Under the pieces are notes generated by a model that worked only from the letters and a program-made list of their open reading frames with translations, was not told the DNA's origin and searched no databases. Positions 28,411-56,004 of a stretch of DNA of 58,661 bases are shown here, piece after piece (position 1 is the stretch's first letter; each line of letters opens with the position of its first letter). Source of the stretch: an uncultured Christensenella sp. (GTDB lineage: Bacteria > Bacillota > Clostridia > Christensenellales > DTU072); the NCBI GenBank assembly GCA_964368255.1, contig CAYJBW010000002.1, positions 1 through 58,661 on the forward strand, read 5' to 3'. The position numbers were made by a program, and so were the translations under genes.

Positions 28411-28482
28411 TGTAAAAATTATTTGTGTTGATAATTAGGCATGGATTAGGCAATACTCCACTACACATTAGTGGAGATTTTT

Positions 28483-28602
28483 ATGAAAAAAGCAAAGAAA
28501 CCCTTCCAAAGTGAGCATTTTGACCCAAACGGGAGCTATACTGGCAACTATAAAGGTGACAAAGAGTACGAAGCGCCCGTTCAAGACGCAGATGATTTGT
28601 AA
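28483..28602 (+). CDS. Candidate small ORF (39 aa): MKKAKKPFQSEHFDPNGSYTGNYKGDKEYEAPVQDADDL
   Basis: GGAG lies 7 nt upstream of the ATG. It sits between the 757-aa lipoprotein gene and the giant-gene promoter. No family named. Confidence 0.35.
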   Translation: MKKAKKPFQSEHFDPNGSYTGNYKGDKEYEAPVQDADDL

Positions 28603-28644: not shown

Positions 28645-28673
28645 TTGACTTTTGCACGCGCAGGCATTATAAT
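28645..28673 (+). promoter_or_regulatory. Near-consensus sigma-A promoter TTGACT-17 nt-TATAAT driving the giant-gene pair
   Basis: -35 at 28645-28650, exact 17-nt spacer, -10 at 28668-28673. It sits about 70 nt upstream of the ATG at 28742. The hexamers are the same as in the rny promoter. Confidence 0.65.
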
Positions 28674-28741
28674 TCTTATATATATAAATATATATAGGGT
28701 AAGTAGCGTAATGTGTGCGCGCTGTGGAGGTTGCTACTAAT

Positions 28742-31700
28742 ATGAAAAAGACCTGGGTCAAGATTGTAATTCTTAGCATGATGCTAGTGTTCGCACTGGC
28801 TTTAACGGCATGCGAGCTACAGGACCCGTCTACTAGTGTGCTTTATTTTATCAATGACAACGCAGCCAATCAGTTTAACAAAGACAGAAACACCAAAGAC
28901 AACGCTATCGACAAAGTTACCGACTCAATCACCAACCTAAGAAGCTATCTAGACAATGAAGCTATTGCGACAACTGGTTACTACATGGGTGTGGAGTTCA
29001 ACATTGACACGCAAGACCCTATTACTTTGGAAGGTGGCAACTTCCGCTTAAAAGTACAGGCTCACCTTTATACATACCGTTACTTACAACAAGACGATAA
29101 AGGGAATGTGCTTAAAGACGAATTTGGCAATGAAATTCATATTTTCAAGTATTATGACAAAAAAGATGGCAAGTATTACGACACCAACAACCAAGAAGGG
29201 ACAAGAGTACTTACCGACGCCGAGGATATACATAACGAAGTAATCAAGAAGAGCAACATACTTATCGAGTGGTACAACGGCACCACTAACCAAATGCTGA
29301 TTGGTATGTATTTTGATGGCATCAACAACAATGCTGATGACCCGGGTAATGTGCTTTATCTTAACATTCAAAACTCAAAAAGAAGTTTCCCGGAATTTGG
29401 CGATACGGTTTTGTATCAACAGTTAATTAGACTACTTATGTCGCTTTCTGTAGAAAGTTTGTTAACAGCAGGTAATATACAGGGCGATGCTGGAGTATCT
29501 ACCTTGCGAGCACTGTTCGGTGTTGCCGTAAATGACAACTACAAAGTAGTGCTAAATTCCCCCATAACAAGCGTGCTATTCTATAGCATTGCAGCGGATG
29601 CTATTGCTTCCAATTTAACTGGCTTCATTCAAGGGCTTTTTTCACCATTTGAAGACAAAATCGACCCACTTACCTTGAAGTATCTGGGTTTTGACTTCTC
29701 CGTTGTGGGAAGTGCCGTAATTAACAGTGTAAACAGCGATATGCAATTCTTTACCGAGCCCGACCCAAATAATGTAAAAGAAATTATGACGGGCGCTTAC
29801 CTAACCTTTGCCGGAGCATCACTAAGCAGGGGTAGCATTTACAACTATGTGTCAGATGTCACCTTTGAATATGGTCCCTATCCGCCCGAAGAAATGGCTC
29901 TAGATAGGCTTTATTACACTGAGTATGACTACGGTAACTATGAGTTCGTTGGTAACCTTTATGTTCCTATGCTTAATGCCAATTTTGATGCGCTAATCAG
30001 AACGGATATCCAACAATATGACAATAGTATAAACAATGTGTTTATGGAGTTTTCTGACATATCGAATGGCGAACTAATGATTGGCGCCTACTACAAGAAC
30101 GAAAGAACATACATAGATATTTCTGGACTAGAGTATTTGTACGGCTGGATAGACCTAAACCAATTAGGCTTCCCCAAAGTTTATGACGAAAGTATAAATC
30201 TTGCAGAACAGCTGGGCAAAATGTTCAAGTTTTTGAACAACAGCATTGTCAGTATTGTCGATGCTATACTTAGCCCCGACAAAAACGACAAAGAAAACAA
30301 ATTGTTAGAATACATTATGGAAAAAACTGTTTCTACCAAGAAGACGCCTGATGATATTTTTAGTAAAAACACAGTAACCCTTACTGTGGACATGTATTTA
30401 ATAAAACACGCCTTAGAAGAAACGGGACAAGGTACATACACAACTAGGCAAATTATCAATATTTTGGATTCATTGATGCCCTACACTATGGACCAAATAG
30501 CCATTATGCTTGGTGTTTCTAGCGCAGAAGTAATGCTTGATAATACATATTTTACCTTTACGCTAAATGTAGATACCAACGAAATCACTGTAAAAATGTT
30601 CACCAATGTGGGCATAAAACCCGGTGAGCCGTCTACGCTTATATTCCAGTTGGATGTAATCCCAACCGTAGTTGGTGAATATGTAGAGATTGCCGAAGTT
30701 AAGTTTGACAACTTTAAGCCGTTAGAACAAATATATACCTATTCTGCAACAATGAACGGAAACTTTGTTTTCAGCACTGCGGAAACTGTGGATATGAGCC
30801 GACTTTTGTCGGCAACTATAGGGGAGAACTCTGGAAAAAACACCCCATACATACTACCACAGAAAGCAGGTGTTACCTTTAGACTTATCTATGACCAATT
30901 TGTCACCGACCAAATTGTAGACGGAGTGTTAAAAAAGGCAGGACGAAGCGCATTTGAACTTACCGTTTGGCTTACAGGCAGTGACGAAACACAAATAATT
31001 ATTAGGCTAGCTTCTGACGATGTGGCATTTAATAACGAAGTGTACCAAAATCAGCCCGAACGAGCGGCGGAACTTGGCTATGTGTGGGTAAGTATTGAGT
31101 GCGTGAAGCTAGGTGACGGCGTCAGTCAAAAGATTCCTAAGGTAAAAATCCGTGAAGATGTCTTTATGACATCAATGCAAGCATATATGAACGGCACTTC
31201 CATAAGTGATGACGCGAGCGAACTAGAAGGCACTGATGTTAATTTGTCAATAACAAGTATTCTTTTTGCGCTAGTTGAAGACAGCTATGTCGTGGCGCAA
31301 CCAAAACAGTTGGAAATAACTACTTCTAACGAAACAGTGCAGAGCATTTTCCGTGTTAAGGGACTAATTGGCAATATAAGAGTGAATGCTGGATTTACTT
31401 ACCGTGTCAAAGGACTAGAGAATGTAAAGTACAGCTACGGCATGTACAAAGTAGGACAGTTCGAGAACTTAGAAGGCAACAGCCCATACGATACCGAACT
31501 TCATGACGACATACCAGTGTACTTCTACGAAGATTATCATTATGATTATGACGACCTGGAGTATGACTTGCGAGTGGATAGACAAACGGGAGTTATTCAA
31601 GTATATGAGAAGGGCGGAAAGAAGCTAATCAATCGTGAGCCAATAAACTATGCCAGTGATTCTTTCTTTAACAACGAAGGACCGAACAACCAAGATATAA

Positions 31701-34700
31701 GTCTAATTAGGTTCAATTATAACAACATTAGCGCGCTAGTTTTGCGCGAAGAAGATATTTATTACTACCTTACCTATGCAGGCGAAAGGGTAGATATTGA
31801 AGAGCAATATGTAAGACTAGAAAGCGGTCAAGTCTATATTTATTACCTTGGTATAATGGATAGAGTACACCACGAAGGTGGAAGTGAGTTTTATTATTAC
31901 GAAAGAGACATGGCGCTAACGGATAGCGATGGATATTATATTTACTATTACCCACAAACCACATTAGGCTTTATGTTCAACTACGACTTGCCGTCAATAG
32001 AAATTACTGAAGCCGCCAAAACGCAGTATGCTCCAAGAATAGACGGTAGCTTTATGGGTACGCTTCGCCATTATGTTTTGGTAATGACAAGTGTGCTAGC
32101 AGTTGAGCGTGGCAAGCTCTTTGAACTAGAGAGCAAAGAGTATTATTCCCTAGAAGACGAAAACAACATTATTGAAGAGTTTGATGAAGATGGTGTGAAG
32201 ATAAAGGAAACGCTTAGCCCTATCGTGCTGTATGTTTTTGAGCCCTTCCTGCCCGTGCCAAAATCCACTGCGGTAAATATTAAAGTTGGTAAAAATACCG
32301 AAATATACACTTTGGTAGCGGACTTCCAAATAGACAAAGAACAGCTATACATAAAAGGCCACATGGAAGTAACGGAAGTAATTATTGCTAAAGGCATGAT
32401 GGGCGAAGCCACCTATCCTGTGCGTATAATTGTTACCAATAGAGAAATTCTTACTGCAGAGTATGTGAATATATATACAACAAATAACGACCAAGTGACA
32501 AATTATGTACCCGTTGTGGATAATATAGAAATTGACCCCTATGACTACATGATTGCAAAGTACGAGTTCTTTAGCAACATTGACAACTTTAACCCCGACC
32601 AATATTCACTAGACAGTAATTCTGCAGATTATTATTTGACACAGTATGAGCTAAAGGAAAAACAGTTCGCAAATGAGTATTTTAGCCAGTATATTTTTTC
32701 CATTAACTTTAATTATTTGGAGAGTGTGCTTTATGCTGAAGAAGTAAAACCAGAGTACATAGCGACAACCTATACCAATCTAAATAACAATGTGTTAGAA
32801 AAATATAACTGGAACTTTGATGTATTTAAGGCAGGGAACAATAGAGAACAAAACATTACTGCGGCGGAAGGTAACATAATAAATCTGCATACCTATTTCC
32901 AAGGACAACTTATTGCGCTTAGAGTTAATGTGGGCAAACGGATATTCTCACATCTAAAGTTTTATGAGAATGACGATTTTAACCCGACAGAAGCCAATGC
33001 CGGCATAGAAAATAACAATCAGTACATTTATGGACATTATGTTGCCAACTATTTTGACGAAGGTAGCTACAAAGTGCCGACAACACCTGTTTTTGTGTTT
33101 AATAACGGTAGCGGTAGAGAGTACGAGAAAGTGTTCGACTTGCGCTACATTAGTGGGCTTAATCAGGACGGCAACTATATTTTCTCGAATATGTACGAGA
33201 TAATGTGGGCTGACCCAAAAATTACTAATATTGGTAGCTTAGGTTCTTACTATTTGTTAGAAGGTGAGCTTGTCAATAGACCTTTCTATGTGAGTCATGT
33301 AGTAAAGGACGAAAACGGAGTTATTATCAGCGAAGGTACGCCAACTCCAGGAGAGAGTGGGAATGACAGCGCCATTGATACATCAAGCTTGAATATGTTC
33401 TGGCTACTAAAAATATTTAAGCCAATCAGAAATGCGATTGGAGGTTATGAAGGGCAGTACAAAGAAATAAGTATGGTTTCTGGCACAAGTACAGATAGTG
33501 GCTTCCCCACCATTGTTTTGCGTATAACGGTAGAGTGCCCCAAACTAAATGTAGCTCCAGCAAGAACAGAAAGTGGCGCGATTATTAAAGAAGCAGACGA
33601 ACTGGACACCACTGGCGCAGGCGGTAGCCCCGTTGTATTTAATCCTAGTGCAATAAAGATAGGTAACAACAGTGTAGGATATTATTTAATTGACCCACTA
33701 AATGCGTCAACTAATATAATACCTAGAGATATAACGCTTTATTTCGTGGATCCAAATGACGAAAGTGGCAGGCTAAGTAGTCACAAATTTAAGAATGTGG
33801 AGTGGTATTCTTATATTCCCACAACCACAGTGGACGGTAACATTACTTTCCAAGCCGGTAGTTATACTAACGCCTCCGGTTACGAAATAATAAAGGAAGA
33901 AAACGGCGTTTATACATTCAACCAACCTACAGATAAGCCAATTGTAACAAGAATTATGGCAAAAATCGGTAGTGACTTGTCAGGATATCAACTAATTGTG
34001 CTTTGCATAAAGGTGCTTAGCAAAGACCCGCAGAATGTGGAATTCTATTTTGGCACAAAGGGCGAAACTACGAAGTACATTTCTGGCATAGAGAAGGTTA
34101 ATCTATCGGTAAACGATGACAAAGGAACAAAAGCAGAAGAATATGCAATTTACACATATTATGTCAATACCTTTGCTAACTTTAATATGCCTACTTGGAT
34201 AAAAGCCTATTTTGGAGTGGCAAGCGAGAGAAGTGAGCTTTATGATGTAACTTGGCAACAGGTAAGTAATAGTAGCTTGCCAGTGTATCAGCCAAACAGC
34301 GTGGTAAATCTAATGGCGATAATAGGTAGCGGAGATGTAAAAATACGCATTTATTTGGTAGTTGTCGTGGCTAATTATTCTATTAGCAACATTGAACTTG
34401 TTAGTGATTATAATTCACTCTTAGTAAAGGTAGGTAGTCATAATAATTATGTACAAGTTAGTGATTTGTTGCAGAAAGATTTTGTCAACAACAAAATGGG
34501 ACTTTACCAAGTAGACGGATATCTGAACAACTACTTATTACTCAGTACCGGTAGCGAGCAAGACGGCTTAGTAGAAATTGGAAAGTTGGGATGCTATAGA
34601 TTTATTGAAGGAGTATATGTCTTACAGGCCCAGATGTATCCTTATGAGTTCCTTAATTCAATTTATAGCAGAATGAATATTTTCTTTAACAACAGTCAAC

Positions 34701-37700
34701 TCGTAGACTATGCTAATGTTAGTAATTACTATACAAGAGTGTATTCTTCGGAGTCAAATCAGACTTTGTCGGTCAAACTTAATGATGCAATTGAATTTAG
34801 CTATAGTTTTGATGCAGGCACACAACAAAACAAACTAAATGTGACATATAGATACCTTGCGGGTGACGGTTATTATTATTATCTAAATCTTGACGAAAAC
34901 GATATGGTTAGAGTGTATCTTAATTCTGATATGGTGGAACAAACAAGCATTAGTTTGGAAGTACATGAGCTTACATCATTACTCACCCACGAAAGAAGCG
35001 CCGAAGATATCAGAAGCTTTGTAGTGGACACTGTTACCTTGCAAAATGGCACAATAGATGGTGGTGGCAAACCATTATCTGCTATTTATACCTTCCTAAG
35101 CGGTAACCTAACTTATTATTCTCCACAAGACATTACCGAAAGAATGAGCTTTATTAGCATAACTTTCACCAACGGCAGAGTAATGACAGTGGAAGAATTG
35201 AATTATAGGCTACTTTACCTAGAGCGCAACAGAAGACAGAACACTATTGTTACCCCTATTAGGAACAAAGTAACATCAATAAACAACTTCAGTGGTATTT
35301 TTAGTATTAACGATATCGTCAGAGAGTCCATAGACCCTTACAGCTTCCAAGAGAGTCCGAACTTTATAGTAAGTTTGGGTACGGGAAGAAACGCTTACGA
35401 TATGACACTAAGAATAATATTTGACGGTGGTTTGCGTGTGAGTGTAGACAGTATGGCAAGTCAAACTATTGATATTGAACCATACAGCGGTAACGGAACG
35501 GCGAACTATGGCAACAATGGATATTCTTTAGCGGTTAATGTATCCGCCGAAATAAAGGTTGTTAAGCAGGACAATACAGGCTCGATTATTAGATATTATT
35601 ATGGTGACCAGTATGGTATAAGCACACAAAAACTAACATCTTGGTATGTTAGTCAAAGTAGCTACGAGAGTGTTCCCGTTGGTTCTGTCATCACCACTAT
35701 TGAACAGAGTTTGATTTATTCTTCGGAGGGCGGTAGCCTAACTATTACCACCCTAACTGCGGAAGGATTCCGACTTACTAGAGTGCTTAATTTTACAGGT
35801 GTGCCAGAAACTATCGACCACTACAACAGTACTCTTGCCACTGGTTTACTCATAAGGAATGGCAGAATAACTGTTGAAGACATTTATAATTATATGCCAA
35901 TTACTACCTATTTTGGTGGTACAGCATATTTACCGAAAGAAATAAATGCCACGCTTAGTGGTAAGAGCATTACTGTTAGCAATGTAAACTGGGAAATATC
36001 CCCCAACTGGCGTCAGAATGTATTAGCACAACTTTCTTACTACGGCACCAACGATTTGCAAAGAGTAATAGCTACCGCAGAAATACTTGGTTGGGAGAGC
36101 TACGAAGGTGGCAAGCAGGTGTATCACGATAGAATTACGATAACTCTTTATATAGTAATAAACAGTGCGGAAGTGGCGCAACTTCCTTGGCTCACTACTT
36201 CTCTAAGACTAAACACTTTGCCAATAATTGAAGATGTGGGCGGAGTGCAAACAAAGATACAGGCTGTTGATGTGGATGCTTTCAACGATATGAACAGCGG
36301 AGCAATAAGTAATGCAACATTTATTTTGCCACAAAACATAATAGTGCAGTATGTAGGGGGAGCAAAGCATACCTTCTACGGTGTAACTTATAAGTTTAGG
36401 AATGTAGATGTAGCTTACATACCATATAACATTCAAGGTATAGATGTTGATGCAATGAGTGACCAATTAAGCCTAAATGTCAATATGTTCGAGACAGACC
36501 ACATTGATTTGCAGGTAAGCTTGGGACTTATGCAGACTCTCATTATTAGGTTCCGTTTCTATGACAAAACCGTTGTAAATGTTGTGCCGGATTTGTCGCT
36601 GACAAACACTGGTATCAGGAACCAAATAAATGATGCTTTGGGCACACTAGATGATGAGTTAAGCGATAGAATACAAAAGGATATGAACCTTATAAGGATA
36701 CAAGCCAACATAGAAAAACTTATAGAAACAGCAAGACTTATAAGAAATAATGTAGCTATGCCACTAACACAGAACATTTTGGGAATGACATCTCTAGCTC
36801 CCATTAGGGCAGAGCTAGTAAAGGGTTGGATAGGCTTTGATATTATTTCTAATCCCCAAGTTAACCCACCAGGACAACCGTTATCGGCGGAGCAATGCTA
36901 CAATTATGCACTGCCTAGACTAAGAACGGAGGCAGAAAGCTATGCAGACAGCTATGCAAGGAACATACTTGATATTATCAACACATCATCACTTGCATTG
37001 CGCGCAGCGGCTATCAAAAAGCAAGTGGATGACTATGTAAGGGTAGCGTATAACAGAAGCTATGACATTATTATTAGCGACTATATCAAAGAAGAGTTGT
37101 CTGTAGCCTTTGTTAAAGAAATGCAAGCAATGGACAGCTATGCTCTAAGTTATGCGTTATATTACAAGAACTATATGGAAGCAAGCCTTAATATAGAGTC
37201 AATAATTAGCGGCATTTACAGAATAAGAGAACAAATAAATTGCGGAATTTATGATATGTTTGCAGATGCAAACTTGCTTAATACTCTTTACAAAAACATC
37301 ATTATTGCTGCGGTGCAAAATGCAATGACTGTCGCCAAAGCTAAGGTAAATAATGAAGCAATCAGCGCAATAATTGACAATATTGTTTGGATGCGACTGG
37401 GGGTCAATTCCGCTTCCGGCAGTCAGTACCAACCGCTCACGAAGGACATCAATTATATAGTAGCTAGCGATCTTTACAAAAGCAAAGTGGAACTCCGCGC
37501 GATATTTAAGGAAATGATAAGCAGCGCTATGGACTTTAGTATTAAGGCAGGGGACATTGATATTATTTCTTCGGAACTGCACGAACTTATACCCCTTATG
37601 GTACAGGCCAATGTGGACAGCATATCTGGACTTAGCACAAGTATAAGCGCAGTAAGAAGAAACTTGATTTCTGACATAGACATAGGAAGTTTGATAAACA

Positions 37701-40177: not shown

Positions 40178-40195
40178 ACGGAGGAAGTAATATAA

Positions 40196-46100: not shown

Positions 46101-49100
46101 CCCTATACAATATAGATAACGGAGTAATCAACATTACTAATCCTTATCAATACTATGTGGCAGGCAGTGAATACGGCTTAGATGTAAGCCTAATTCCTAC
46201 CACAATTTCTGCAATTATTACGGCGCAAAATTATTCTTCTACGGAAATAAATACGCACTATGTTGACTGGGTATTTAAGAAAGATGTGTTTACCGAGAGC
46301 ATATTTAGAACGGGCATAAATAGAGCGCTTTTTGCCACCGCAACGCTAAAATGCTACTACGATATTACTAAGAGAACTGAGCTTGAGCAGATAGGACAGA
46401 CACAGGCTATCGAACTGTATATAACCGTTCAGCCTATGGACTTTTATGGAATAAGCTACCAACAAATGCCCGTAATTGAAGGCATGGATGACGACAGCAA
46501 TATAAAACTTAACACCATAACCTTAGACCCATACAACGATGTAATGCATTATAACGGCAACTTGACATTGCCGAATAAGGGACTAAATGTGTTCTTTAAT
46601 AATTTAGGGGAAAGCTATACCTTTAGCGATGTGACATTTAGGTTAGTAGACGACACAAATAGACCAAGAGATATAGTTTCTGCCATTACCTATGACCAAT
46701 ACGGACATACTCTTGCCAGTTATGCGTATTTGACCGATCCAGGCAGGATAAAACTTAGGATGTATCTGCCAGGATATTCCTATGAAGAAGACAATTACCA
46801 GTCAGGCATAGTAATTTATGTTGTAATATATCGTAGAGTTGTGGAAGATGTAACGCTACCTAACCTTGCAACTAATGAAAGCGGCGCAGTTAGTCAAATT
46901 GCCCTGCCTTCACTATACTTTATTGATCCATATAATAGCGCAACATATCCACTTCCTGTTGTAGCGGATGTAAAGTTTGAAGAAAGCACAGAGTTTAGTA
47001 CACAAAGAATTGTTAAGTGGGAATTTTTTGACGGTAGTGACTGGAAGAACCTTAATGATACAGAGTTGTTCTACTTGCAAGCTAGCACCGCATATCAGAA
47101 TATTCAATATGGATATTTCCGCAACACAGCAAGCGCATACCAAGGTGGCAACTACCTACTTCGCGGATTTATACGGGTGGGAGAAGGGGCTACAGGCATT
47201 GTGGGTGAACAGTCCTTTGAAGTGCAAGTAATTGTACTAAACAGGAAGCTAGAAGCAACCTACAAAACAACTCATGCGTTTAACGACCCATTAGGCGGAA
47301 TTTTGGGTGATGTACCCAATACACTTGCCCAAATAATGTTTGTAGATTATGACAAATATTATATTGGTGTTATTGACGAGCAGTACTACTATAGCAACTG
47401 GAGCACACCTGTTTTGCCAGAGATTAGCTGGACGAGATATATTACTGATGACGAGATTGCTTCAATTGGTGGCTTTGATAGAGATATTACTGGCTATATT
47501 TCCAATACCAACGCCAATACAAAGTATCTATATAATTTATATAATCAACAGGTAAAAGCAGAATATGACTTGCTAATAAAAGCGTTAATGTGGGACAACT
47601 ACTTTAACAGTGACGGCAATCCTATTGTTAGCTATTCAACGCAAGCTGCTGCTGAGCTTGTAGCGATGAATGAGGAGTTAGAAAACGATGTAATTTTTGC
47701 AACCTATAATTTGCTTAAAAACAAGCTAAACAACAGCACAGAAGAAGAAGAAAGGGCGAATGGCTTATACCTTGTCAATGGGCTAATCATTCTAATGAGC
47801 GAAAAAACAGGCTTTAATCCAAGTGATTATTTAGATAGGTTAAGCGTCGCTTTATATGAAGAGCTTGCAAATGAGTATGCTAGTTGGGTAGCGAGTGGCA
47901 AGAAGGAAAATGAGAAAAATAGAAACATTGATATATACATTGAGTGGGAAAATATCTATTCACAATTTAAGGGAAAAGATGCGGTAAATAGCGCAGAACT
48001 CAGTGAATACCAAAAGCTAAAAGTTCTTAAATATAACAAGCTAAACGATCCGGGCAGTAACAAATTTTCTAGCAGTGATAGAGAATACAATGCCAAATTA
48101 AAGACAAAGATATCTAATGATTTGTTAATATATATAAACAAAGAAGTATATTTGCGACTGTATGATAGGGTGACGGATGCAGAAAGAGCGCGTATGCGTA
48201 GCATTCTGGGCATGACTACAGAAAGAGCGGATTTAATAAGCAATGCTTTGCAAACATATATCAGCTATGACTGGAAAAATCTAAGTTCTTATGGTGAGAT
48301 AGCTCTTGCAAACATTTCTGCGCCGGCAATGGATTTTGAAGATATATACGAAATTGACGATGTGATGATGACTCAAGCTATTACTGAGTTCTTATTCAAC
48401 ATATACGACAGCAATGCGCTAGACGAAACAGTGCTTGCTAAGTTTATTATTTCATATTCCGATTATTATCGTCCTTATATAGAACAGGCACTTTCTACCG
48501 CTTGGGAAAACTATAGAGAAACAGTAAAAGACAAATCAATAACTGAGTATGTCAACAGAGTTATTAGAGAAACTATCAATACTATAGTACCTACCTATGT
48601 TGACGGAAACGGCACTATTCAAAAAGTTGTGGACTTTGATTATATTAGTTACCAACCTACTAGCGCAACCAATGTTTTGTATTGGGATGAGATTTACGCT
48701 TACAAAAGAGATAATGCAACTTCTCACATAGATGTGCTTGTAGGGACAGAAGAAGAAAAGTGGCTTATGATTTATAACGCTCATTTAATAAACGGCGACA
48801 CAGAAATGGCAGCTGTTATGGACGGGATTTTGGCAGAAATCCCAGGAAGCGTTTCCGATAAATACTCAGCAGCTATAATTGTTTATAAAAAATACTTGGT
48901 AGAACTTGCAACCGAAGATATGGACTATGTCTATGGCAAAGCAGATCAGGCGACGAATTCCCTCGTGGTAGACGCTATTTCTGACAATTCCGCTCAGTAC
49001 TCAGGTTTGGACTTCTCAGCAAGTAGAAGCTTTTCTAGCATGTACGATACTTTGGCAGATAAAGCCTTTGATTTGTTCCTAAACAGTTACGCAGAAGGTA

Positions 49101-52100
49101 GCGACAATTATAATGAAATAAATAATAAGTACCTAAACCCAAGTGACGGATTCAATGGCGATAAGCGTTTCACACTCCACTATTATCTGTATGACCCAAA
49201 TCCGCTTATGTCAATGGCTATAAGAAAGAGAGCCCAAGAAATATTCTTCTATGTACTGCAAGGCAGTGCCGCTTATGACCTAATGTATGCAAACGCAGAC
49301 AAGGTCGGGCTAACCAAGGCAAGAATAGATAGCTACATAAATGTTATGAATGTAGATATTATAACCACATATAACAATGTGTTTACCGCAGAAGAATTTG
49401 CAACATTTATTAAAGCAAAATACTTCCTGCAAATGATGAAAAACTTTAGTGGCGGAGAAAATTATGTCAAATATATGCAACAGTGGTATAAGGAAAGTTT
49501 ACTAGGAGTAAAAGACAATGCCTACAAGGCACTAGTTACAGCGTATACTAACTACGACTTAGTTAACGGACGAACCAATGTAGCGCAACTAAACAGCAAA
49601 AAACTTGCCGCCAATAATATTACACTTATCGCATTTAACTTGCTCGTAGAAATGTACCGTGAAAGGGCAACGCAAAAGACATCCTTTATGCAGGAGAAAA
49701 AACAGTATCTTGACAATAATATTTATTCCTTTGCCAGAGTTATTTATGAAGAACTTATGGTAAGTGAGACATTTGGCTATAAGAATTATTTGACAATGGA
49801 TGATACTCTTACTGCACTTCGCAAGGCAGACGCGGTAATATATTATTATGATAATGTAGCTAGCAATGAAGAAAAGCAAATAATAGACTATGAGCTTGCA
49901 TTCAACCAACACAATCACAGTATCGTATATGATATTTTGCTTAATCGCTATGATGTTAGCGAAAGTTTTGGCGAAGGACTAATAAATAGCTATTTTTATA
50001 GCATTCTTATGACCATGCTTTCTAGCGTGGAGCTAGATGTTATTACAAACACAAATGTGTCAGGTGCCGAACCGCAATATGTGTATTATTCCAACCTAAT
50101 AAATAATATGATACTTGCTGGTTGCGAAGATAGAACATCGGGGAGTTTGACAGGTATAGACAGACCGAACTTGTTATCAATTTATACCAAAGAAGACTAT
50201 TTGGCTTATGTTTATCAGGAAGCAATAACAGCTTATACCCAGAAAATAAATGCAAGCGAAATTATCCTTACCAAAACCTATTATTACGACATATACAATC
50301 TATTATATTCAGCAAATAAAGAGCAGTTTGATGATATCCTAACTCAGATTTATGCTTCTTATGTACAAAGTGGCAATATGGGCGACAGTGAAGGCATTAA
50401 GTACAACGCGTTCGATATACTAAGTGATAATATGGTTGCTAAAGAACTACATAATTTGTTTGTAGCCATTGAAGAAATCAAAGAAGAATTGTCGAGAGCA
50501 ACCTATTATGACGAGTTAAGTTTGTTCACAATAGGTAGCGATTATGAGGATATGCGCAACGCTATTTATGATGCTTTTAGCAATGGATACTCTAGTGTGT
50601 ATGAAACGGCCAGTGAAGAACAACAAGCAATTATTGATAATGTAATCAATAAGAACTTGTTTGGACAAATAAGCGACATTGAAGAGAATTTGTTAGAAAT
50701 AGTAAATATATATAACGATATAAAACTAATTAGTAATGAAGAAATTCAGAGCTTTATTGACGCTATAATATTAAACTGGGAGAGCGTATCAATAGCAGAT
50801 TATGGTAGCAATAAAGACAAAGAAATAATTAGCGCCATTGTTTTGGAAATAAAGCAAAATCTCTATGAAATGTATGATTCTATTGACCAAGGCAGAACAA
50901 ACTTTTTTGCAATAATGGCTCTAATCTCCATTGTCGGAGAGTACAAATTAGAGTTAGAAAAGCTCGATAAAAACCTATTTGAGCGCGAATATCTAACAAG
51001 TGGCGACTTGAGCGGACTACAAAGCGCGTTAAAGAGCAAATCTGTTATTGCTCTAGAAAAGGTGCTAGAATTAAACGAACTATATATTGCCAAAGCATTG
51101 GTTGATACGAGAATTGCGGAGCATAGCTACGACTTTGTAATAAGCAATAACGACGCATCACCCACTTACGAGGAGTATGAAGCAAAAATAATAGATAGAT
51201 TGTTAAAAACCAGTTCTGCAAGTTTGCTTGAGAGCATTCAAAGCGGTGGCAATCTAACCCTTTATTCTTACTATAATTATGTTTATAACAGTGTTGTTGT
51301 AGGGGGCGCACCTAATCCTAATGTTATTGGCAAACTTCCACTTTCATATTACTTAACATTTATTGACGGAACTAACTCTTATTCGGATGTATCTTATCAA
51401 AAAGCCTTTGATGCAATGTCCAATGAGAGAGAAGTTAGTTTGGTGCTTTTTGTAAGCGACAATATAGAAAGAGCTACTAGCACTACGCCACTAGAAGACA
51501 GGAATAGGCATGTGCTGAAACTTGACAAAACCAAGCTAGAAAATAGCCAAGAGTCTTCTCAGATTGATTCTGTATATGTATCTAATAGCAGCAAAGTTCA
51601 AAATAACAACAACTTCAAAAAAGACGGCGTAGTTTATAAGTTCGTCCAAATGAACATTACCTATGTGGACTATTTTAATAACAGTGAAGAAAGCACTATA
51701 GAAGACTACACTGAGAAAAACAAAATAATTATTGACCCACTCTATCCAGTACTTCCCACCAAGGTAAAAGCATACGCTACCATTACGGAAAATAACGAAA
51801 TTAGAGATGTGGGCATGGTAAATGTTTCTTACAGTTTGGAGTTCTACGAAAACATTTATGAAGGCGGCACAGGACAGTTTGAAATAACCCTGTCGGACAG
51901 CAGAGGTAATACCAACACCTTGATTATTGCTGTTGTTTATTTGGACAGGAAGATAGACAAAGTGTTCACAACCGATGCGTTCTATGGTGGAGATAGAGTT
52001 CTTCCTACCGATGTTTCCAATGCGACATTTATTGGATACTTCAATCAATTTAGCACTTTGGAAAACACAAACATTTTGTCTATAAATCCCATCAATGACA

Positions 52101-55100
52101 ATATATTAGACACTTACAACAAGAAGTTTATACTGCCAAACACACTGGGCGTGCGCTTCTCTAATGGCGATGTTGCGCTATATAATAATGTTGTTTGGGA
52201 CACGGGGGCACTATCTTATAGCCTAGCGGAACAGAATGTTTCGGTAAGAATAAAGTCTTATGATGTAGAAGATGCAATTAACGGACTAATAAATGCAGTA
52301 GAGTTTAACTATTCTGGTGGCGGAAGTGTAAAAATATCTATGCTTAACGCAAGTAGAGAAGTAATTTCCACTAAAATATACGAAAATGCACCGTCTTTAG
52401 CCAATTGGAATATCAAAGTAAAGACGATAAATCAAAGTATTACTACGCTGGACTATTATGACGAAGACTCATTAAAGAGCTTAGGCGCGATGGAAGGTAA
52501 TTATATCAATGTTGCTAGCACAACAATGATGCTTAATCCTTATGATTTAGAATATCCAAAAACTGTAGCCATAAATTTCTGGGACGGGACTACGATAGAA
52601 GTTAACCCAGCATGGCGTTTGCAGCCTGGCGCAGCAGGAGAGTACAAACTCAAAGATATACTTCTTGGCACTGCTCAAGATAGGATGATAATGGCTCAGT
52701 TTAGTTATCTAGGGCATGTAATTAGTGTGCGATTTGTCACAGAAGACATAGAAATTGAGAATGTAAATATCGAACTCGGCGGGTATATTGACGGTGGCAC
52801 CTTGTATTTAGTTGTTGGCGCAGGAAGCGCATATAATCAGCTACAAAAGAACTACGCTTACATGTACTACAACTTCTCCAAAGTGGAGAATGAACAGAAC
52901 TGGCAAAAAGTACCGTTGTCATTTATGGATGTGGAACTAAGCCGTATTGTTACAACCAGCCCGCATATTTATGAAGGCGAAAATGCCATTGTCGGTGTGC
53001 TTGGTTGGGATAAAGTAAACTATCCTGATATAAACTTTTCACCCAACATAAAGTTCGATGTAATAGTAATTGAGCCCAAGCTTTATAGTTACTTTGGTGG
53101 AGATAGCCTAAATACTTATGTAATACACGACTACTTTAGCACTCCTTATGATAACAACTACCAGAAGAAAAAGGATGTCAACGAACCTAATACTATAGGG
53201 AACTATTTTGTTCAACTAGGAGCAAACAGAGAGCTTGACACTTACTTTAACATTATAGCGGAACAGACCATTTACAAAGTAGTGGACAAGAAGATAAACT
53301 TCAAGGTAGCTTACGAGATGGATTCTACCAGCGATAAGCTAGCATTCTTACCTGCTGGCGGTAAGACAATAAGCTTTGAAATTACACTTAATTTGACACC
53401 TTACTTATACACCGCTGTAAGCAATATAGAGTTTTTGCAGACAAAAACTGAAGGTCAAACTGGCTACTTTACTTGGACGAAAGTTCCGCCAAGTTCATCT
53501 AGTTATGTGCCTGCTATCCACTGGCCGTTAGGCGTGACACTAAGGTCTAGCGAAATGCCCAAAGCAAGAGATGTGCTAAGCGGAGAAATAATATCTTTGA
53601 TGTGGGACCTTAATGATGTCAATATCAACTTAGCTACAAGCGAAGGGTACAAGGTGCGCGGATGGTACTATGATGCTTCTTCTACATGGAAGTACTTAGA
53701 TTTGACAATATTCGTGGACAAAGTTGACAAAAAAACCAATATACTTAACAACCTAGGTGGCAACTATGCGCTCCATAATTTCTACAATGGCAGATACTAC
53801 AAGTTACCCATAAACATAACTGATAACACCCTAAGGTTCCTAAGAAGTGACGGCACTTTTGATTATTTGCCAAGTTCTAGTTACCTAATTGAGTACAAGC
53901 TAGTCAGTCAAGACCAAGAGGAATTTAGCGCAACTGCTTATCCGCTTAATGCAGGAGAATACGAAATAAAGGTGAGAATTGACGACTACAACATGTTCGG
54001 AGAAATAATCTTTACGCTCAAAATATCTGCTGTCACAATAAGCGGTGAACTGATTGTGTTCGAAGGTGACAGTGAGACGGGCAACACAATAACTCGTGTA
54101 TACAATGGCAAAGAGCATCCTTTGTTGGTGAAGGAAGGTTTGCCAAGAGTGTCTGTTGACAAATGGTTCTCTAGCTATAACGAAAAAGACGCATTAGTAA
54201 GTGCTTATAGCAAGCAAGGTTATAGCGATACAGCAGCCAAGACTAGGGCTTATAATGATTTGTACGAAGGAGTTACTATTGCAACCAAAAGGTATCTTGA
54301 CAACGAAATAGCAAACATTAGAAGGGAAACTGATATTACTGACTCAGCCTTGCTTAATGCTACGCTGTTTGACCGCCTAGTACCCAATTTGCAAATTTCT
54401 GAAGTTGTTTATACTATTACTTACCGTAATAGCCAAGACGAAGTATTATCTGTAGCGCCTAGCGATGTGGGGCAATACACAGTACTGTTCGAAATTATTA
54501 CAAGCAATAACAGTGGAAACTATATATTCGACACAGACAGGTTGTCAAGAATTATACTAATTACTAAGCCTGACATAACCTATAGCGTTTTGTCGGATAA
54601 GATAGTGTACAGCGGACGGCGACAAAACCCGCTAATCAACAATTTGCACGATGCAGACGGCAATTTGCCTAGTGGCGTAGTTGTTACATACAATTATAGT
54701 TATATAGAAGGTGGAGAAACCAAATATGTGACTAACGGAGTAATAAATGTTGGTAGTTATCGTTGCGACATATTGATTGACGGTGGCAATAACTATCCGT
54801 CTATGAATATAGAAGATAAACTTATCACCGTTCAAGCAAAGGAAATGCATGTAGATATAGATAAGATTAGTGTGCAGTACCTAAGCGATGTAGCAAACAT
54901 AGAAGAGAGCGTTGTATTTAGCGGACTTGTAGGTACAGACCGTCCCAGAGATTTTGGCAAGATTATTACGGAAACGGAAGTAAAGAGCTATTATACATTA
55001 GGATTATATCAAGCAGGAATACTTGGATTTAAGCTTAATGCAGAAAGTGAGCATATCTATACAACTTTTGATATGGGACAAATTTTTGAAGCAGACGGCA

Positions 55101-55960
55101 AAACTTATTATAGGTTGACACTAAAGAATGCCAGTCTTGACGGTAGTTTGTATAAGGAGCTTGACGAAGAAAACAACTATGTTTATGCTGACCTTATAAA
55201 TGCATTCCACAACTATGCTATCTATATTACCACAGCAGGCGAGTATGAGATATTAGCAGAAGATGATGCGGTAGTAATTGAAAGTGATGAGCAACTACAA
55301 ACAGCTATAAATAACATCAGTGAGAATGATAGCCTAAAATTGTACCTATCCGCTGGAGATTATTCTGCCATTACGCTTAATGTCAATGCTGCAGTAACAA
55401 TAGTCGGTTGTTATGACAATGATAGAAATATACTTACTAAAATAGGCGGCATAACCGTTAACGCAGGCGCGCTCACCGTCAAGATAATTAAGTTTGAAGC
55501 AACTTCAGCGGGTAGTGTTGGTCTAATGATAAATAACAATGCCAATTCTATAGGTATCTATGATTGCGAATTTGACGGGAATAAAAACGAATATGCGGTG
55601 GCGATAAAGACAGGCACTCATTATACGGGCAAAATATATATGGTAGATACCAATATATATTACTATCATAGGGGAGTGGAGCTTGTCAACGGCAATCTAG
55701 AAATGGACAACAGCATTTTTAGCAGCAACTGGGTTGGCGTTTCTATACAGTCAGGTCAAAGCGATTTGCGTATTACTGGTACCAACTTTTCCGATCATAA
55801 TATAGCGATACTTAGCAGTAACACAAATACTACCATACTGTATAACTATTTTGAACTCAATGTTGTAGGAATAAGAATACCTTCAAGTGGCGCCGATGTG
55901 GAAATACTAGCCAACAATACATTCTCTAGTACAAATGCAACCAACATTGACCACAAATAA
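40196..55960 (+). CDS. Giant surface lipoprotein 2 (5,254 aa), unknown function; C-terminal MBG-like modules and parallel beta-helix repeats
   Basis: ACGGAGGAAG SD; the ATG is 18 nt after the giant-1 stop. MFKSKSKLFLLLVLIIVMMTTVLAAC gives a signal peptide plus lipobox, followed by the DDPDDDDNKK linker. The frame is 15.8 kb and uninterrupted. The C-terminal 230 aa show PbH1-like repeats. Confidence 0.9.
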   Translation: MFKSKSKLFLLLVLIIVMMTTVLAACSTAVVDDPDDDDNKKPAATITVNSALDMIYSGLVEGGKALEKAPSKYVETIYTIYTSEINYTITYKAYYAANIPDSLFYVKVFDNEEFVDRAIFYYDSRDLYISSGNSKKVLSDFSSTMMFDVFYTAIKSLDMTENFYGGEVASLFNRNNEKVNLSLLMSVNNIGYVKVAENRDSLEIKDVDLSIITDVIGASMDLYLNDIGDKFDILTQKYLDFRLSRLLESRFRYIFADKINVQLEDNVAKTTSWKASGTMRDASKYFVTADMTYDFETNTITEGSKFVKSKFTEASLGKNEFEGTIFIPAISDQLFDMEVVTDLNSVNNKTNQMTIRILDAQKEEFMGAYYRDEIMYLDISGLYSWVGGTVDLAALRFPKVYFENINLTNLMVAGYNDLLKAVLVLLDKDIGNIEFENEELYSIIMENFTSDDKNNIYYTITEELIQKIRQDDKSVMTMISELLDVDQTKLESYLGEDFFTDARLVISYNLDTGKIGLTFYKGDELIVQCYLVRKDFTTIMFPADTTMQSDAYSKLLLPDVTTLEFEGELRVGNAKSETDLSKFLGTLVGDVSGTNTPQKLKSNERLRISGAISESITTNSLGESVVNNTIKVSVTKITYGIGEPVIKNVFNIYTNIANPNILLIEYFLPVGEYANQSPGGLKYRISKEVLKSAFDELLGENNIFGESSAFGILEMLLSTKNSYSTVSKDNGYINFSIMVDSKSDPLFDLIGVKDTTATIKARIRFVSIDLSSIVAANYSTPNAMPLNNVTVESIYSENSKWKDKVDVYFDGIKVVMKPNYSEESTQIVTGKTTYNPLARLFGAEITYRVEIVNENGTYKIETILSNKIVVDPTFNKNLPIQVAVLYDNGKTGVLKCSITDFNVSNITNAGYNLSGFADVFTPNMISKLKIGQNSIMEKSFEVYVLVNNRSIIAEKSYKETPIVGAIQIDPYSYALKKQLNSNYNPIIDGIQTNGIEIKFNNVYGEETYIDGEEEKVRDLTYDIEGVNKFFLSNLSLQWSYDESLITWRGSKGYAYAYFGDREKGNALKIAIEVSVLAQEIDYVQIDNEEAGKYTIDYLIESSYTLPTQTSEIHSVKVYFKGETGRFRIVSNRPMGISDDVYYNNYLPVQLMWEGAESIRTKIDVNGTATLFGTSNRTKAIFGIIASVGYQNVPLQVVVPERYMSDSEEVTKLVNLVTSYTVDQFGSITSSMASIRISQAKFGEADEAYKSFAINPYDSSAHLPSSIYLWVNKSYDSKSQRIVKNYPVRWKTTNKDGVELNIIKEKGGNFYLANPVTEQRNLVVYGTVGDGNGEIWVVMHITNLASELQSVTYYTDYNYDTYSPDNGLPVELFRENTYYINNQITKIKTKYDVAWTTTNMKGDELGIISLGQDNKYFINVGAVLKNVDLVVYGKASNKLGESFWVMMNILVSELNVQTITYMGLEVSTTEIVVDPYKPYYLPTGFVAVLESGEEITVRNIMWHINNGIDDEWYPAIYSGTNRSMYGNDNKYIFSRHGGIYYARYIIEAGDGIISQELVLEINVLKRTIVPGLIEIYNLEEYNGIKNKPVTGYIDIDYYSAESTRLLDKLNSIKAGSPYNYAGVYFDEAKSEGIFDRFTLTVDWNKSKVGYAGYENSINRLIYMLNHPTPGFEMTLIGTIATGTINEQALAIDFAFSSLEIENISFNRVRRMAEGSSPVLELAQQNSYYQIDFEEMYSAFEGANMLYINIHKVFALTVPNKNNAEKYASPYDYINYLLGSVVLYYKNGNMNNAVPSINYLGITESDFNARVLGLTQQTGTISLTEIKLNKLSQGSAIDEVNVVITAKVDDRITNDIALTAELYNEDSTERYGQDYPLPTFIDVEYLYSGVVRYDVRMWTVGATSRSILATDIASRIPVKYIDTLRSSGTSEGSYYNFYYNLPTEKEDLFLQVYIPKKNINKTFYNADGETTLYNIDNGVINITNPYQYYVAGSEYGLDVSLIPTTISAIITAQNYSSTEINTHYVDWVFKKDVFTESIFRTGINRALFATATLKCYYDITKRTELEQIGQTQAIELYITVQPMDFYGISYQQMPVIEGMDDDSNIKLNTITLDPYNDVMHYNGNLTLPNKGLNVFFNNLGESYTFSDVTFRLVDDTNRPRDIVSAITYDQYGHTLASYAYLTDPGRIKLRMYLPGYSYEEDNYQSGIVIYVVIYRRVVEDVTLPNLATNESGAVSQIALPSLYFIDPYNSATYPLPVVADVKFEESTEFSTQRIVKWEFFDGSDWKNLNDTELFYLQASTAYQNIQYGYFRNTASAYQGGNYLLRGFIRVGEGATGIVGEQSFEVQVIVLNRKLEATYKTTHAFNDPLGGILGDVPNTLAQIMFVDYDKYYIGVIDEQYYYSNWSTPVLPEISWTRYITDDEIASIGGFDRDITGYISNTNANTKYLYNLYNQQVKAEYDLLIKALMWDNYFNSDGNPIVSYSTQAAAELVAMNEELENDVIFATYNLLKNKLNNSTEEEERANGLYLVNGLIILMSEKTGFNPSDYLDRLSVALYEELANEYASWVASGKKENEKNRNIDIYIEWENIYSQFKGKDAVNSAELSEYQKLKVLKYNKLNDPGSNKFSSSDREYNAKLKTKISNDLLIYINKEVYLRLYDRVTDAERARMRSILGMTTERADLISNALQTYISYDWKNLSSYGEIALANISAPAMDFEDIYEIDDVMMTQAITEFLFNIYDSNALDETVLAKFIISYSDYYRPYIEQALSTAWENYRETVKDKSITEYVNRVIRETINTIVPTYVDGNGTIQKVVDFDYISYQPTSATNVLYWDEIYAYKRDNATSHIDVLVGTEEEKWLMIYNAHLINGDTEMAAVMDGILAEIPGSVSDKYSAAIIVYKKYLVELATEDMDYVYGKADQATNSLVVDAISDNSAQYSGLDFSASRSFSSMYDTLADKAFDLFLNSYAEGSDNYNEINNKYLNPSDGFNGDKRFTLHYYLYDPNPLMSMAIRKRAQEIFFYVLQGSAAYDLMYANADKVGLTKARIDSYINVMNVDIITTYNNVFTAEEFATFIKAKYFLQMMKNFSGGENYVKYMQQWYKESLLGVKDNAYKALVTAYTNYDLVNGRTNVAQLNSKKLAANNITLIAFNLLVEMYRERATQKTSFMQEKKQYLDNNIYSFARVIYEELMVSETFGYKNYLTMDDTLTALRKADAVIYYYDNVASNEEKQIIDYELAFNQHNHSIVYDILLNRYDVSESFGEGLINSYFYSILMTMLSSVELDVITNTNVSGAEPQYVYYSNLINNMILAGCEDRTSGSLTGIDRPNLLSIYTKEDYLAYVYQEAITAYTQKINASEIILTKTYYYDIYNLLYSANKEQFDDILTQIYASYVQSGNMGDSEGIKYNAFDILSDNMVAKELHNLFVAIEEIKEELSRATYYDELSLFTIGSDYEDMRNAIYDAFSNGYSSVYETASEEQQAIIDNVINKNLFGQISDIEENLLEIVNIYNDIKLISNEEIQSFIDAIILNWESVSIADYGSNKDKEIISAIVLEIKQNLYEMYDSIDQGRTNFFAIMALISIVGEYKLELEKLDKNLFEREYLTSGDLSGLQSALKSKSVIALEKVLELNELYIAKALVDTRIAEHSYDFVISNNDASPTYEEYEAKIIDRLLKTSSASLLESIQSGGNLTLYSYYNYVYNSVVVGGAPNPNVIGKLPLSYYLTFIDGTNSYSDVSYQKAFDAMSNEREVSLVLFVSDNIERATSTTPLEDRNRHVLKLDKTKLENSQESSQIDSVYVSNSSKVQNNNNFKKDGVVYKFVQMNITYVDYFNNSEESTIEDYTEKNKIIIDPLYPVLPTKVKAYATITENNEIRDVGMVNVSYSLEFYENIYEGGTGQFEITLSDSRGNTNTLIIAVVYLDRKIDKVFTTDAFYGGDRVLPTDVSNATFIGYFNQFSTLENTNILSINPINDNILDTYNKKFILPNTLGVRFSNGDVALYNNVVWDTGALSYSLAEQNVSVRIKSYDVEDAINGLINAVEFNYSGGGSVKISMLNASREVISTKIYENAPSLANWNIKVKTINQSITTLDYYDEDSLKSLGAMEGNYINVASTTMMLNPYDLEYPKTVAINFWDGTTIEVNPAWRLQPGAAGEYKLKDILLGTAQDRMIMAQFSYLGHVISVRFVTEDIEIENVNIELGGYIDGGTLYLVVGAGSAYNQLQKNYAYMYYNFSKVENEQNWQKVPLSFMDVELSRIVTTSPHIYEGENAIVGVLGWDKVNYPDINFSPNIKFDVIVIEPKLYSYFGGDSLNTYVIHDYFSTPYDNNYQKKKDVNEPNTIGNYFVQLGANRELDTYFNIIAEQTIYKVVDKKINFKVAYEMDSTSDKLAFLPAGGKTISFEITLNLTPYLYTAVSNIEFLQTKTEGQTGYFTWTKVPPSSSSYVPAIHWPLGVTLRSSEMPKARDVLSGEIISLMWDLNDVNINLATSEGYKVRGWYYDASSTWKYLDLTIFVDKVDKKTNILNNLGGNYALHNFYNGRYYKLPINITDNTLRFLRSDGTFDYLPSSSYLIEYKLVSQDQEEFSATAYPLNAGEYEIKVRIDDYNMFGEIIFTLKISAVTISGELIVFEGDSETGNTITRVYNGKEHPLLVKEGLPRVSVDKWFSSYNEKDALVSAYSKQGYSDTAAKTRAYNDLYEGVTIATKRYLDNEIANIRRETDITDSALLNATLFDRLVPNLQISEVVYTITYRNSQDEVLSVAPSDVGQYTVLFEIITSNNSGNYIFDTDRLSRIILITKPDITYSVLSDKIVYSGRRQNPLINNLHDADGNLPSGVVVTYNYSYIEGGETKYVTNGVINVGSYRCDILIDGGNNYPSMNIEDKLITVQAKEMHVDIDKISVQYLSDVANIEESVVFSGLVGTDRPRDFGKIITETEVKSYYTLGLYQAGILGFKLNAESEHIYTTFDMGQIFEADGKTYYRLTLKNASLDGSLYKELDEENNYVYADLINAFHNYAIYITTAGEYEILAEDDAVVIESDEQLQTAINNISENDSLKLYLSAGDYSAITLNVNAAVTIVGCYDNDRNILTKIGGITVNAGALTVKIIKFEATSAGSVGLMINNNANSIGIYDCEFDGNKNEYAVAIKTGTHYTGKIYMVDTNIYYYHRGVELVNGNLEMDNSIFSSNWVGVSIQSGQSDLRITGTNFSDHNIAILSSNTNTTILYNYFELNVVGIRIPSSGADVEILANNTFSSTNATNIDHK

Positions 55961-56004
55961 AGGTATAGATGCTTTCCTTACTTGCATTAAGCACTTGAGT
56001 ATAA

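Follow-up and report, generated by a model that had tools for sequence, protein, structure and literature searches.

A conserved pair of paralogous giant lipoprotein genes, candidate lipid-anchored and fibrillar-adhesin-like, in an uncultured Christensenella sp.

Two giant genes lie next to each other on the forward strand of a 58,661-nucleotide (nt) stretch of contig CAYJBW010000002.1 from an uncultured Christensenella sp. (assembly GCA_964368255.1). This stretch is called the window, all coordinates are positions within it, and A and B denote the first and the second giant gene. Our analysis favors the reading, with a rough probability of 0.55, that A and B are co-transcribed and encode paralogous giant surface lipoproteins which are anchored by an N-terminal lipid and form a fibrillar-adhesin-like pair. 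A first-pass annotation of the window had spoken of an undescribed cell-surface system. This is a fair description, but categorical newness goes beyond the evidence: a signature module at the N-terminus is new here, and anchor and topology are unusual, whereas giant multidomain surface proteins are of a kind already known.

The first-pass annotation had also reported two giant open reading frames (ORFs) in the same orientation, 18 nt apart with GGAGG in the gap, and products of approximately 430 and 600 kDa. Both the ORF table and the sequence bear out this arrangement, and the computed masses are 432.0 and 594.5 kDa. The frame of A is open from 28715 with the ATG at 28742 as likely start and the TAA at 40175-40177 as stop codon. 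A and B together occupy 46% of the window, and the GC content of their region (36-39%) matches that of the flanks. Since approximately 1 random codon in 15 is a stop codon at 38% GC, frames of this length cannot be due to chance.

The encoded proteins begin with MKKTWVKIVILSMMLVFALALTAC (A) and MFKSKSKLFLLLVLIIVMMTTVLAAC (B). The lipobox noticed earlier at each N-terminus was recovered by a rule of the PROSITE PS51257 type, defined as a basic n-region, a hydrophobic h-region, and [LVI][ASTVI][GAS]-C within approximately the first 35 residues. A, B, and the upstream gene U comply with this rule, and the lipobox cysteine C24 of A is invariant across the alignments A1, A4, A5, and A6. From these signals both giants are predicted to be lipid-modified at the lipobox cysteine and exposed at the cell surface. 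Their computed isoelectric point is 4.6, with 9 cysteines in A and 8 in B. No second hydrophobic segment of transmembrane-helix length was found in either protein, only isolated windows at the 1.6 cut-off. In agreement with the first-pass annotation, Pfam and hydrophobicity scans of A and B did not reveal any other anchor. Neither C-terminus has an LPXTG motif with the hydrophobic segment and basic tail that would go with it, Pfam gave no Gram_pos_anchor match, and neither Pfam nor NCBIfam gave a match to SLH, CWB2, choline-binding, or LysM domains. Lipoproteins use the general Sec/Lgt/LspA route. The lack of a dedicated secretion gene nearby had been singled out before but is not a noteworthy absence, since none is expected for such proteins; lgt and lspA themselves lie outside the window.

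A and B were found to be paralogous. A profile-profile comparison of the A and B families aligned residues 1-2615 of A with residues 3-2220 of B (probability 100, E 3.9e-78), and phmmer alignments separated two colinear sub-families, A-type and B-type. The earlier view of two giants as a pair thus stands as far as adjacent lipoprotein genes are concerned, but the two are not unrelated, and the upstream gene U also encodes a lipoprotein. A-type relatives align end to end with A, with shorter forms of 2.6-3.2 thousand amino acids (kaa) and longer ones of up to 6.4 kaa. B-type relatives align end to end with B, the forms of 3.5-3.9 kaa lacking approximately residues 2440-3770 of B. Within 90% clusters, lengths range only from 3,147 to 3,156 amino acids (aa) and from 3,730 to 3,735 aa.

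When 1.84 billion representative proteins were searched exhaustively by HMMER with a profile built on the first 900 residues, exactly 100 relatives were obtained. Nearly all of these comprise 2.5-6.8 kaa, while many database matches are short fragments. In the great majority, the shared module of approximately 900 aa is located at the very N-terminus just after the lipobox. Of 72 family members that reach 1.5 kaa or more, 63 comply with the lipobox rule. The remaining 9 are N-truncated gene calls that begin beyond the usual basic n-region, and several of them still show the lipobox cysteine. All relatives originate from metagenome assemblies. Those with a taxonomic name belong to Clostridia, Clostridiales, Christensenellales, or Firmicutes/Bacillota, one entry being also labeled Candidatus Stercoripulliclostridium pullicola, and all of them are annotated as 'hypothetical protein' except for one automatic 'right-handed parallel beta-helix repeat-containing protein' label. 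Word-index searches with shorter queries returned 2, 0, and 1 relatives. As the exhaustive search gave 100, these low counts reflect a limit of the tool, the index of which misses most giant proteins, and not rarity. In exact-sequence look-ups A and U were not on record. Judged by these searches, the A/B family is narrow, rare, and uncharacterised, and derives from uncultured Clostridia.

In the window, A and B matched nothing in Pfam at E<=0.1 except GLTP (E 0.078), and nothing in NCBIfam. Sequence and profile searches of the PDB were without result for A, the first 5,000 aa of B, the profile of the N-terminal module, the C-terminus of B (last 354 aa), and the repeat profile. The GLTP match and a match to AP-3 mu in the PDB sequence search (E 0.11) were dismissed as chance. 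The earlier statement that no named family can be recognised therefore holds at standard thresholds, but the profiles of the relatives disclose Big_4-like repeats in A and B as well as MBG-like domains and a beta-helix in B.

A locus with the same neighborhood was found in one genome of the GTDB-representative set, the metagenome-assembled genome 'Bacillota bacterium OH_SFB_23' (L001). Its gene order is VanW, RNase Y, truA, ecfT, ecfA, ecfA, a 744-aa lipoprotein, A, and B, and the A-B locus is syntenic beside ecfA-ecfA-ecfT-truA and RNase Y. The A orthologue of L001 has 3,803 aa and is 70% identical with 48 gap columns; the B orthologue (P0035) has 5,249 aa and is 62% identical with 45 gap columns. 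Full-length orthologues at these identities and with fewer than 50 gap columns in independent assemblies show that A and B are not the product of misassembly, and support the uninterrupted frames reported earlier. The rate of nonsynonymous substitution (dN) between A and its orthologue was 0.22 overall, 0.09 in the first 1,000 codons, and up to 0.35 at the C-terminus, with the synonymous rate (dS) saturated; A and B are under purifying selection. Giant open frames were also found in six metagenome loci, L002-L007. Four loci extend to the end of A (L001, L005, L006, and L007), and all of them keep the order A-then-B; the N-termini of A in these loci are 46-87% identical to that of the window. 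In a further locus, L008 (ERZ2647865 NODE_226, coverage approximately 2x), an A-type gene is split into many small called genes, and feoB likewise. The one fragment examined, P0042, stems from a 2x-coverage contig where even feoB is in pieces, and this contig was set aside because it contained too many errors. Judging from the low-coverage contig L008, many short database 'family members' are frameshift artefacts and not small paralogues.

The N-terminal module (N-module) defines the family. Over residues 200-800 of A it is approximately 90% identical to its counterpart in OH_SFB_23; the value for RNase Y, 87%, is similar. In A almost nothing separates the module from the lipobox; in B an acidic linker of approximately 20 aa lies in between. 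An AlphaFold (AF2) model of residues 1-1200 of A was built from a 26-sequence alignment of matches from the exhaustive search and reached a predicted local distance difference test score (pLDDT) of 77.9 and a predicted template modeling score (pTM) of 0.63; an earlier model from 4 sequences (pLDDT 41) was discarded. In the model the N-module consists of three successive runs of approximately 8 long antiparallel strands, each followed by helices, and helix makes up 26% and strand 35% of residues 25-930. For the predicted module, the fairly high pTM points to a single coherent body, not to a string of beads. Foldseek found no match to this model at E<=1e-3 in PDB or BFVD. The top weak matches, TbpB, vitellogenin, an ApoB barrel, AttH, and LolA, had E-values of at least 0.006, probabilities of at most 0.60, and template modeling (TM) scores of about 0.3 (all below 0.35), and provide a lead only. 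Pfam gave no match of the AsmA/DUF490 type to A or B, and Foldseek listed no AsmA/TamB/YhdP-type structure with a beta-taco groove among the PDB matches of the 1-1200 model. The N-module is new in the sense that it is without sequence or structural relatives outside its family of approximately 100 members.

Beyond the N-module, a recurring motif of approximately 'YYIDPY...LP..v.v.F..g....v.W' emerged from off-diagonal hhalign matches and from the consensus of the relatives. Plain BLASTP of A and B gave no internal repeats, and regular expressions written for the Big_4-like and MBG-like motifs returned nearly nothing because of their strictness, so that profile hidden Markov models (HMMs) were needed. 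A repeat HMM was seeded with the motif, a few seeds possibly coming from the window, and was rebuilt in four rounds from matches in the relatives only. At a domain E<=0.01 it detected 7 immunoglobulin (Ig)-like repeats in A and 11 in B, as compared to none in 40 shuffles. According to tile-wise hhalign, nothing but these repeats recurs in A, and in B they are the main element to recur. Their consensus matches Pfam Big_4 (PF07532) with 17.1 bits (E 0.004), which does not reach the gathering threshold of 22.1 bits. Big_4 was also matched by 3 out of 16 individual copies (E at least 3.6e-4), and no other family recurs. Relatives match Big_4 up to E 2e-8, and the domain was found in 2 out of 13 A-type sequences scanned. 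A and B of the window have no Big_4 match at E<=0.1, hence the repeats are named 'Big_4-like' only.

The repeats of A are interrupted by a segment (residues 2615-3005) that probably is helical. Alignments to relatives break at approximately 2665-2770, and the A4 consensus has a weak stretch there. In B the variable insert shows the lowest identity to the orthologue (46-49%), and on inspection at least its start reads helix-like. Conservation is lowest in these two middle segments of A and B. Since this block is missing entirely from the relatives of 3.5-3.9 kaa, it represents an insertion or a lineage-specific expansion. Chou-Fasman-type propensity profiles were uninformative.

The C-terminal region of B was assigned through its relatives. 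Among 13 short B-type relatives, Pfam detected Beta_helix in 7, MBG_3 in 4, and MBG_2 in 1. The MBG_3 match of relative P0066 (residues 3104-3173, E 9.5e-6) maps in phmmer alignments to approximately residues 4630-4790 of B, where MBG-like motifs are visible. Residues 5005-5243 of B align to residues 3474-3717 of P0062 (E 2e-19), spanning the Beta_helix match of this relative at 3580-3703 (approximately 5110-5230 of B). P0081 was the second relative with a Beta_helix match used for the assignment.

A near-consensus TTGACT-17-TATAAT promoter, proposed in the first-pass annotation, is indeed present in front of A. Sites of the type TTGAC[AT]-17/18-TAnAAT were located 86-113 nt 5' of the A-type gene in all eight loci (the window and L001-L007). 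Promoter and early leader share 89% identity over 66 nt between the window and L001, as compared to 66% for the adjacent small ORF. A terminator-like hairpin (28456-28476) is located 3' of U; thus, A and B form their own transcription unit. Just 3' of the -10 box, the leader (28674-28741) carries the AT-rich palindrome TATATATAAATATATATA, which is kept in L001. A leader hairpin can be drawn in all eight loci, with differing sequences and weak z-scores of -0.5 to -3.0. Although these hairpins recur, they are statistically unconvincing and were rejected as a supported element; they may represent an mRNA-stabilising or regulatory element, or nothing. At the other end of the unit, a peptide chain release factor gene (56005-57054, forward strand; 349 aa with PCRF and RF-1 domains) starts 44 nt after the stop codon of B. 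As no terminator-like site was found in between (55961-56004), this gene may be read through from the A-B operon.

Coordinates of the A-B transcription unit and of predicted protein features (window positions; aa, residues of the respective protein)
Feature	Position	Strand	Basis
Sigma-70-type promoter TTGACT-17-TATAAT of the A-B unit	28645..28673	+	11/12 consensus positions
GGAGG ribosome-binding site of A	28726..28730	+	11 nt before ATG 28742
Gene A, 3,811 aa, 432.0 kDa, predicted lipoprotein	28742..40177	+	ORF table and sequence
A predicted type II signal peptide, lipobox LALTA-C24	28742..28813	+	PROSITE PS51257-like rule; alignments
A family-defining N-module, alpha/beta, aa 25 to ~930	28814..31531	+	Most conserved part
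A beta-rich body with five Big_4-like Ig repeats (aa 1422-1507, 1637-1768, 1797-1885, 2376-2477, 2499-2614)	33005..36583	+	Repeat HMM, E 1e-5 to 7e-17; hhalign tile self-matches agree
A helix-like, poorly conserved middle segment, aa 2615-3005	36584..37756	+	Sequence inspection
A sixth Big_4-like repeat, aa 3016-3087	37787..38002	+	E 2.9e-10; hhalign 1637-1688 vs 3015-3058, probability 77
GGAGG ribosome-binding site of B	40180..40184	+	Inside the 18-nt A-B gap
Gene B, 5,254 aa, 594.5 kDa, predicted lipoprotein, paralogue of A	40196..55960	+	ATG 40196 to stop at 55960
B predicted type II signal peptide, lipobox VLAA-C26	40196..40273	+	PS51257-like rule; L001 orthologue has LVAC
B N-module homologous to that of A, ~aa 45-850	40328..42745	+	Profile comparison
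B body with eight Big_4-like repeats (aa 857-952, 1078-1204, 1243-1352, 1468-1567, 1585-1704, 1861-1961, 2099-2221, 2240-2356)	42764..47263	+	Repeat HMM; hhalign tile pairs up to probability 96
B variable insert, ~aa 2440-3770	47513..51505	+	Skipped by 3.5-3.9-kaa relatives in phmmer alignments
B three further Big_4-like repeats (aa 3832-3925, 3956-4061, 4111-4192)	51689..52771	+	Repeat HMM, hhalign tiles
B putative MBG-like domains, motifs at aa 4585, 4757, 4851, possibly 4935	53948..55165	+	Homology via relatives
B putative C-terminal right-handed beta-helix, aa 5005-5254	55208..55957	+	Homology via relatives

These features are consistent with the following model. The precursors of A and B would be exported by Sec, lipid-modified at the lipobox cysteine by the Lgt/LspA route, and held by their N-termini on the outer face of the cytoplasmic membrane. 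The strand-rich module of approximately 900 aa after the lipid anchor may serve as a membrane-proximal base. The other 2,900 (A) and 4,400 (B) residues would form a long, mostly non-repetitive chain containing diverged Big_4-like Ig domains, which probably passes through the wall and projects outward in an extended shape. The tip of B with its MBG-like domains and the beta-helix appears to be the likeliest part to bind a ligand, probably a glycan, and A and B may cooperate. Compared to classical Gram-positive adhesins this topology would be reversed, with an N-terminal anchor and a C-terminal tip. The N-terminus is the most conserved part and the distal parts are the least conserved, which fits an anchored base with an exposed tip.

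Fibrillar adhesins and fibrillar-adhesin-like proteins were defined by Monzon et al. 2021 (PMC8286594), whose criteria comprise an extracellular location, a rod-like stalk of tandemly repeated domains, an adhesive region at the end opposite the anchor, and a known surface anchor motif or domain. A and B resemble them in their very long single chains, predicted to be extracellular, in Big_4-like Ig domains that may act as a stalk, in a distinct terminal region (putative MBG-like domains and beta-helix in B), and in a surface anchor. In Firmicutes, this anchor normally is a C-terminal LPXTG motif, in contrast to the N-terminal lipobox of A and B, and the word 'lipoprotein' was not found in the paper of Monzon et al. 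Furthermore, A and B differ from fibrillar adhesins in the C-terminal position of the putative tip, the mostly non-repetitive chain, the organisation as a conserved paralogous pair, and the conserved base module of 900 aa without known relatives. The nearest described analogues, compared by description only, are Giant1-5 of Apilactobacillus kunkeei (PMC12863079). In common with what is predicted for A and B, these are extracellular proteins of 3,000-8,000 aa from a member of the Bacillota, are encoded by consecutive genes that take up a large share of their locus, and possess a domain of the beta-solenoid/beta-helix type. Giant1-5 carry a Sec/SPI (signal peptidase I) signal, long imperfect internal repeats, a C-terminal DUF5776 and, in Giant1-4, an N-terminal beta-solenoid (PMC12863079). 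A and B, in contrast, have an SPII (signal peptidase II) lipobox, no DUF5776 match in Pfam, few repeats, and, in B, a putative C-terminal beta-helix. The Pfam families Big_4 (PF07532), MBG (PF18887/PF18676), and Beta_helix (PF13229) are matched by relatives of A and B, but the copies in the window are below threshold and make up a minority of each protein.

Several observations weigh against the fibrillar-adhesin-like reading. The beta-helix and the MBG-like domains of B are assigned by transitive homology, and B of the window has no direct Pfam match to MBG or Beta_helix at E<=0.1. In A nothing comparable to these domains and no other adhesive domain was identified. Unlike in typical stalks, the Ig-like repeats account for only approximately 20-25% of each chain, and the remaining 75-80% are without detectable repeat. 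Finally, in its near-invariant lengths within clusters and its synteny beside housekeeping genes the pair resembles a core structural component more than a variable adhesin.

The last point leads to the main rival reading, an envelope scaffold or outer protein layer, which we regard as unlikely. A and B, in some genomes together with a short paralogue, would associate via their N-modules to build struts or a sheath of fixed length as a core part of the envelope in this clade, and would not be adhesins. This would fit the conserved synteny beside ecfA-ecfA-ecfT-truA and RNase Y, the near-invariant lengths within clusters, and a chain that is mostly non-repetitive and conserved end to end. The near-consensus promoter in all eight loci and the highly conserved promoter and leader suggest strong constitutive expression, and the conservation of the N-module equals that of RNase Y (87-90%). 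A lipoprotein of approximately 700 aa directly upstream of A in L005 and L006 is a short N-module paralogue (hhalign against the B family, probability 93, E 2.5e-7), so that lipoproteins consisting of an N-module only adjoin the pair. Moreover, Christensenella minuta, a cultured member of the wider group, is reported to stain Gram-negative but to lack the genes for a lipopolysaccharide outer membrane (PMC11448272), so that its envelope is not fully explained. Against a scaffold speak the lack of any SLH, CWB2, or other wall-binding or S-layer domain match in Pfam and the lack of support for self-assembly. Adhesins and glycan-binding proteins typically show such a content of Big_4, MBG, and beta-helix. 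In addition, several relatives named Christensenellales, Clostridia, or Clostridiales are shorter, so that a 'ruler' length is not kept across the family. A bolder and still more doubtful proposal is that the N-module represents a new fold family forming a heteromeric base of A and B (with the short paralogue in some genomes), and that in a Christensenellales-like clade the two giants serve as struts of the core envelope or build an outer protein layer. If so, this would be a previously unrecognised envelope architecture in the Bacillota and could help to explain Gram-negative staining without an outer membrane.

It is improbable that the pair constitutes a giant surface-tethered polysaccharide-active enzyme, in which a lyase or glycosidase, formed by the beta-helix of B, would be kept at a distance from the cell, with the Ig-like domains serving as spacers or binding carbohydrate. 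In its favor, pectate lyases and further polysaccharide-degrading enzymes are among the right-handed beta-helices, Big_4 is present in glycoside hydrolases according to its Pfam description, and all B-type relatives, even the short forms, retain the beta-helix. However, no catalytic family was matched in Pfam, in NCBIfam, or in a PDB sequence search with the C-terminal 354 aa of B, catalytic residues were not identified, and A is without a beta-helix.

Slightly weaker still is the case for the N-module as an array of lipid- or hydrophobic-ligand-binding barrels (LolA/TbpB/vitellogenin-like) that would take up a hydrophobic or host ligand at the membrane surface or pass it on. Nearly all of the weak best Foldseek matches are lipid- or ligand-binding open or closed beta-barrels, namely LolA of several species (probability 0.57-0.60, TM score of the target approximately 0.3), AttH, TbpB, the ApoB barrel, and vitellogenin, and the three runs of approximately 8 long antiparallel strands with helices agree with such an array. 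TbpB/LbpB and the LolA-like half-barrels also share an N-terminal lipid anchor followed by barrel-like beta-meander lobes. In contrast to A and B they are proteins of 20-80 kDa from diderm bacteria, and the similarity is not significant (E at least 0.006, TM below 0.35, with no Foldseek match at E<=1e-3). Pfam gave no AsmA/TamB/LolA match, and the other 3,000-4,400 residues would be left unexplained. An artefact by misassembly, a chimeric contig, or decaying pseudogenes, to which the many short database fragments might point, is effectively refuted by colinear full-length orthologues in independent assemblies with few indels, strong purifying selection, a GC content matching the flanks, and the origin of fragment P0042 from a 2x-coverage contig with a broken feoB.

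The upstream gene U (26137-28410, forward strand) encodes a third lipoprotein of 757 aa with the lipobox FSLQSC. Its L001 orthologue is 39% identical. U has no Pfam match and no detectable relation to the N-module of A and B beyond the signal peptide. Between U and the promoter of A, a 39-aa ORF with the product MKKAKKPFQSEHFDPNGSYTGNYKGDKEYEAPVQDADDL (28483-28602, forward strand) has its own GGAG ribosome-binding site; this site overlaps with the terminator-like hairpin behind U. In L001 an equally long ORF occupies the same position, with 22 out of 39 residues identical and a shared DPxGSYTGN...PVQDxDDL; this ORF therefore probably is a real small protein gene, and it is without a Pfam match. 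Elsewhere in the window, a 926-aa protein (11958-14738, forward strand) with four Listeria-Bacteroides repeats (Flg_new) and a transglutaminase-like core is likely another surface protein. A 408-aa protein (17785-19014, reverse strand) contains three DUF1508 repeats and a weak N-terminal match to a YxzE-like bacteriocin (E 0.006), and is partly conserved in L001. A protein with an Mrr-type restriction endonuclease domain (Mrr_cat, E 2e-22) is encoded among housekeeping genes (10253-11278, reverse strand).

A and B define a family of approximately 100 sequence clusters which is unnamed in databases, and the alignments built here make full structure modeling feasible. Together they amount to approximately 1 MDa of predicted surface protein, conserved and apparently driven by a strong promoter, in gut and digester members of the Clostridia that have been neither cultured nor studied. 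If A and B are adhesins, they would be the main candidates for attachment of these bacteria to particles, glycans, or partner cells, and would extend the concept of fibrillar adhesins to lipid-anchored, N-to-C reversed, and mostly non-repetitive chains. Should they be envelope scaffolds, they would bear on the question of how 'atypical Gram-negative' Bacillota build their envelopes.

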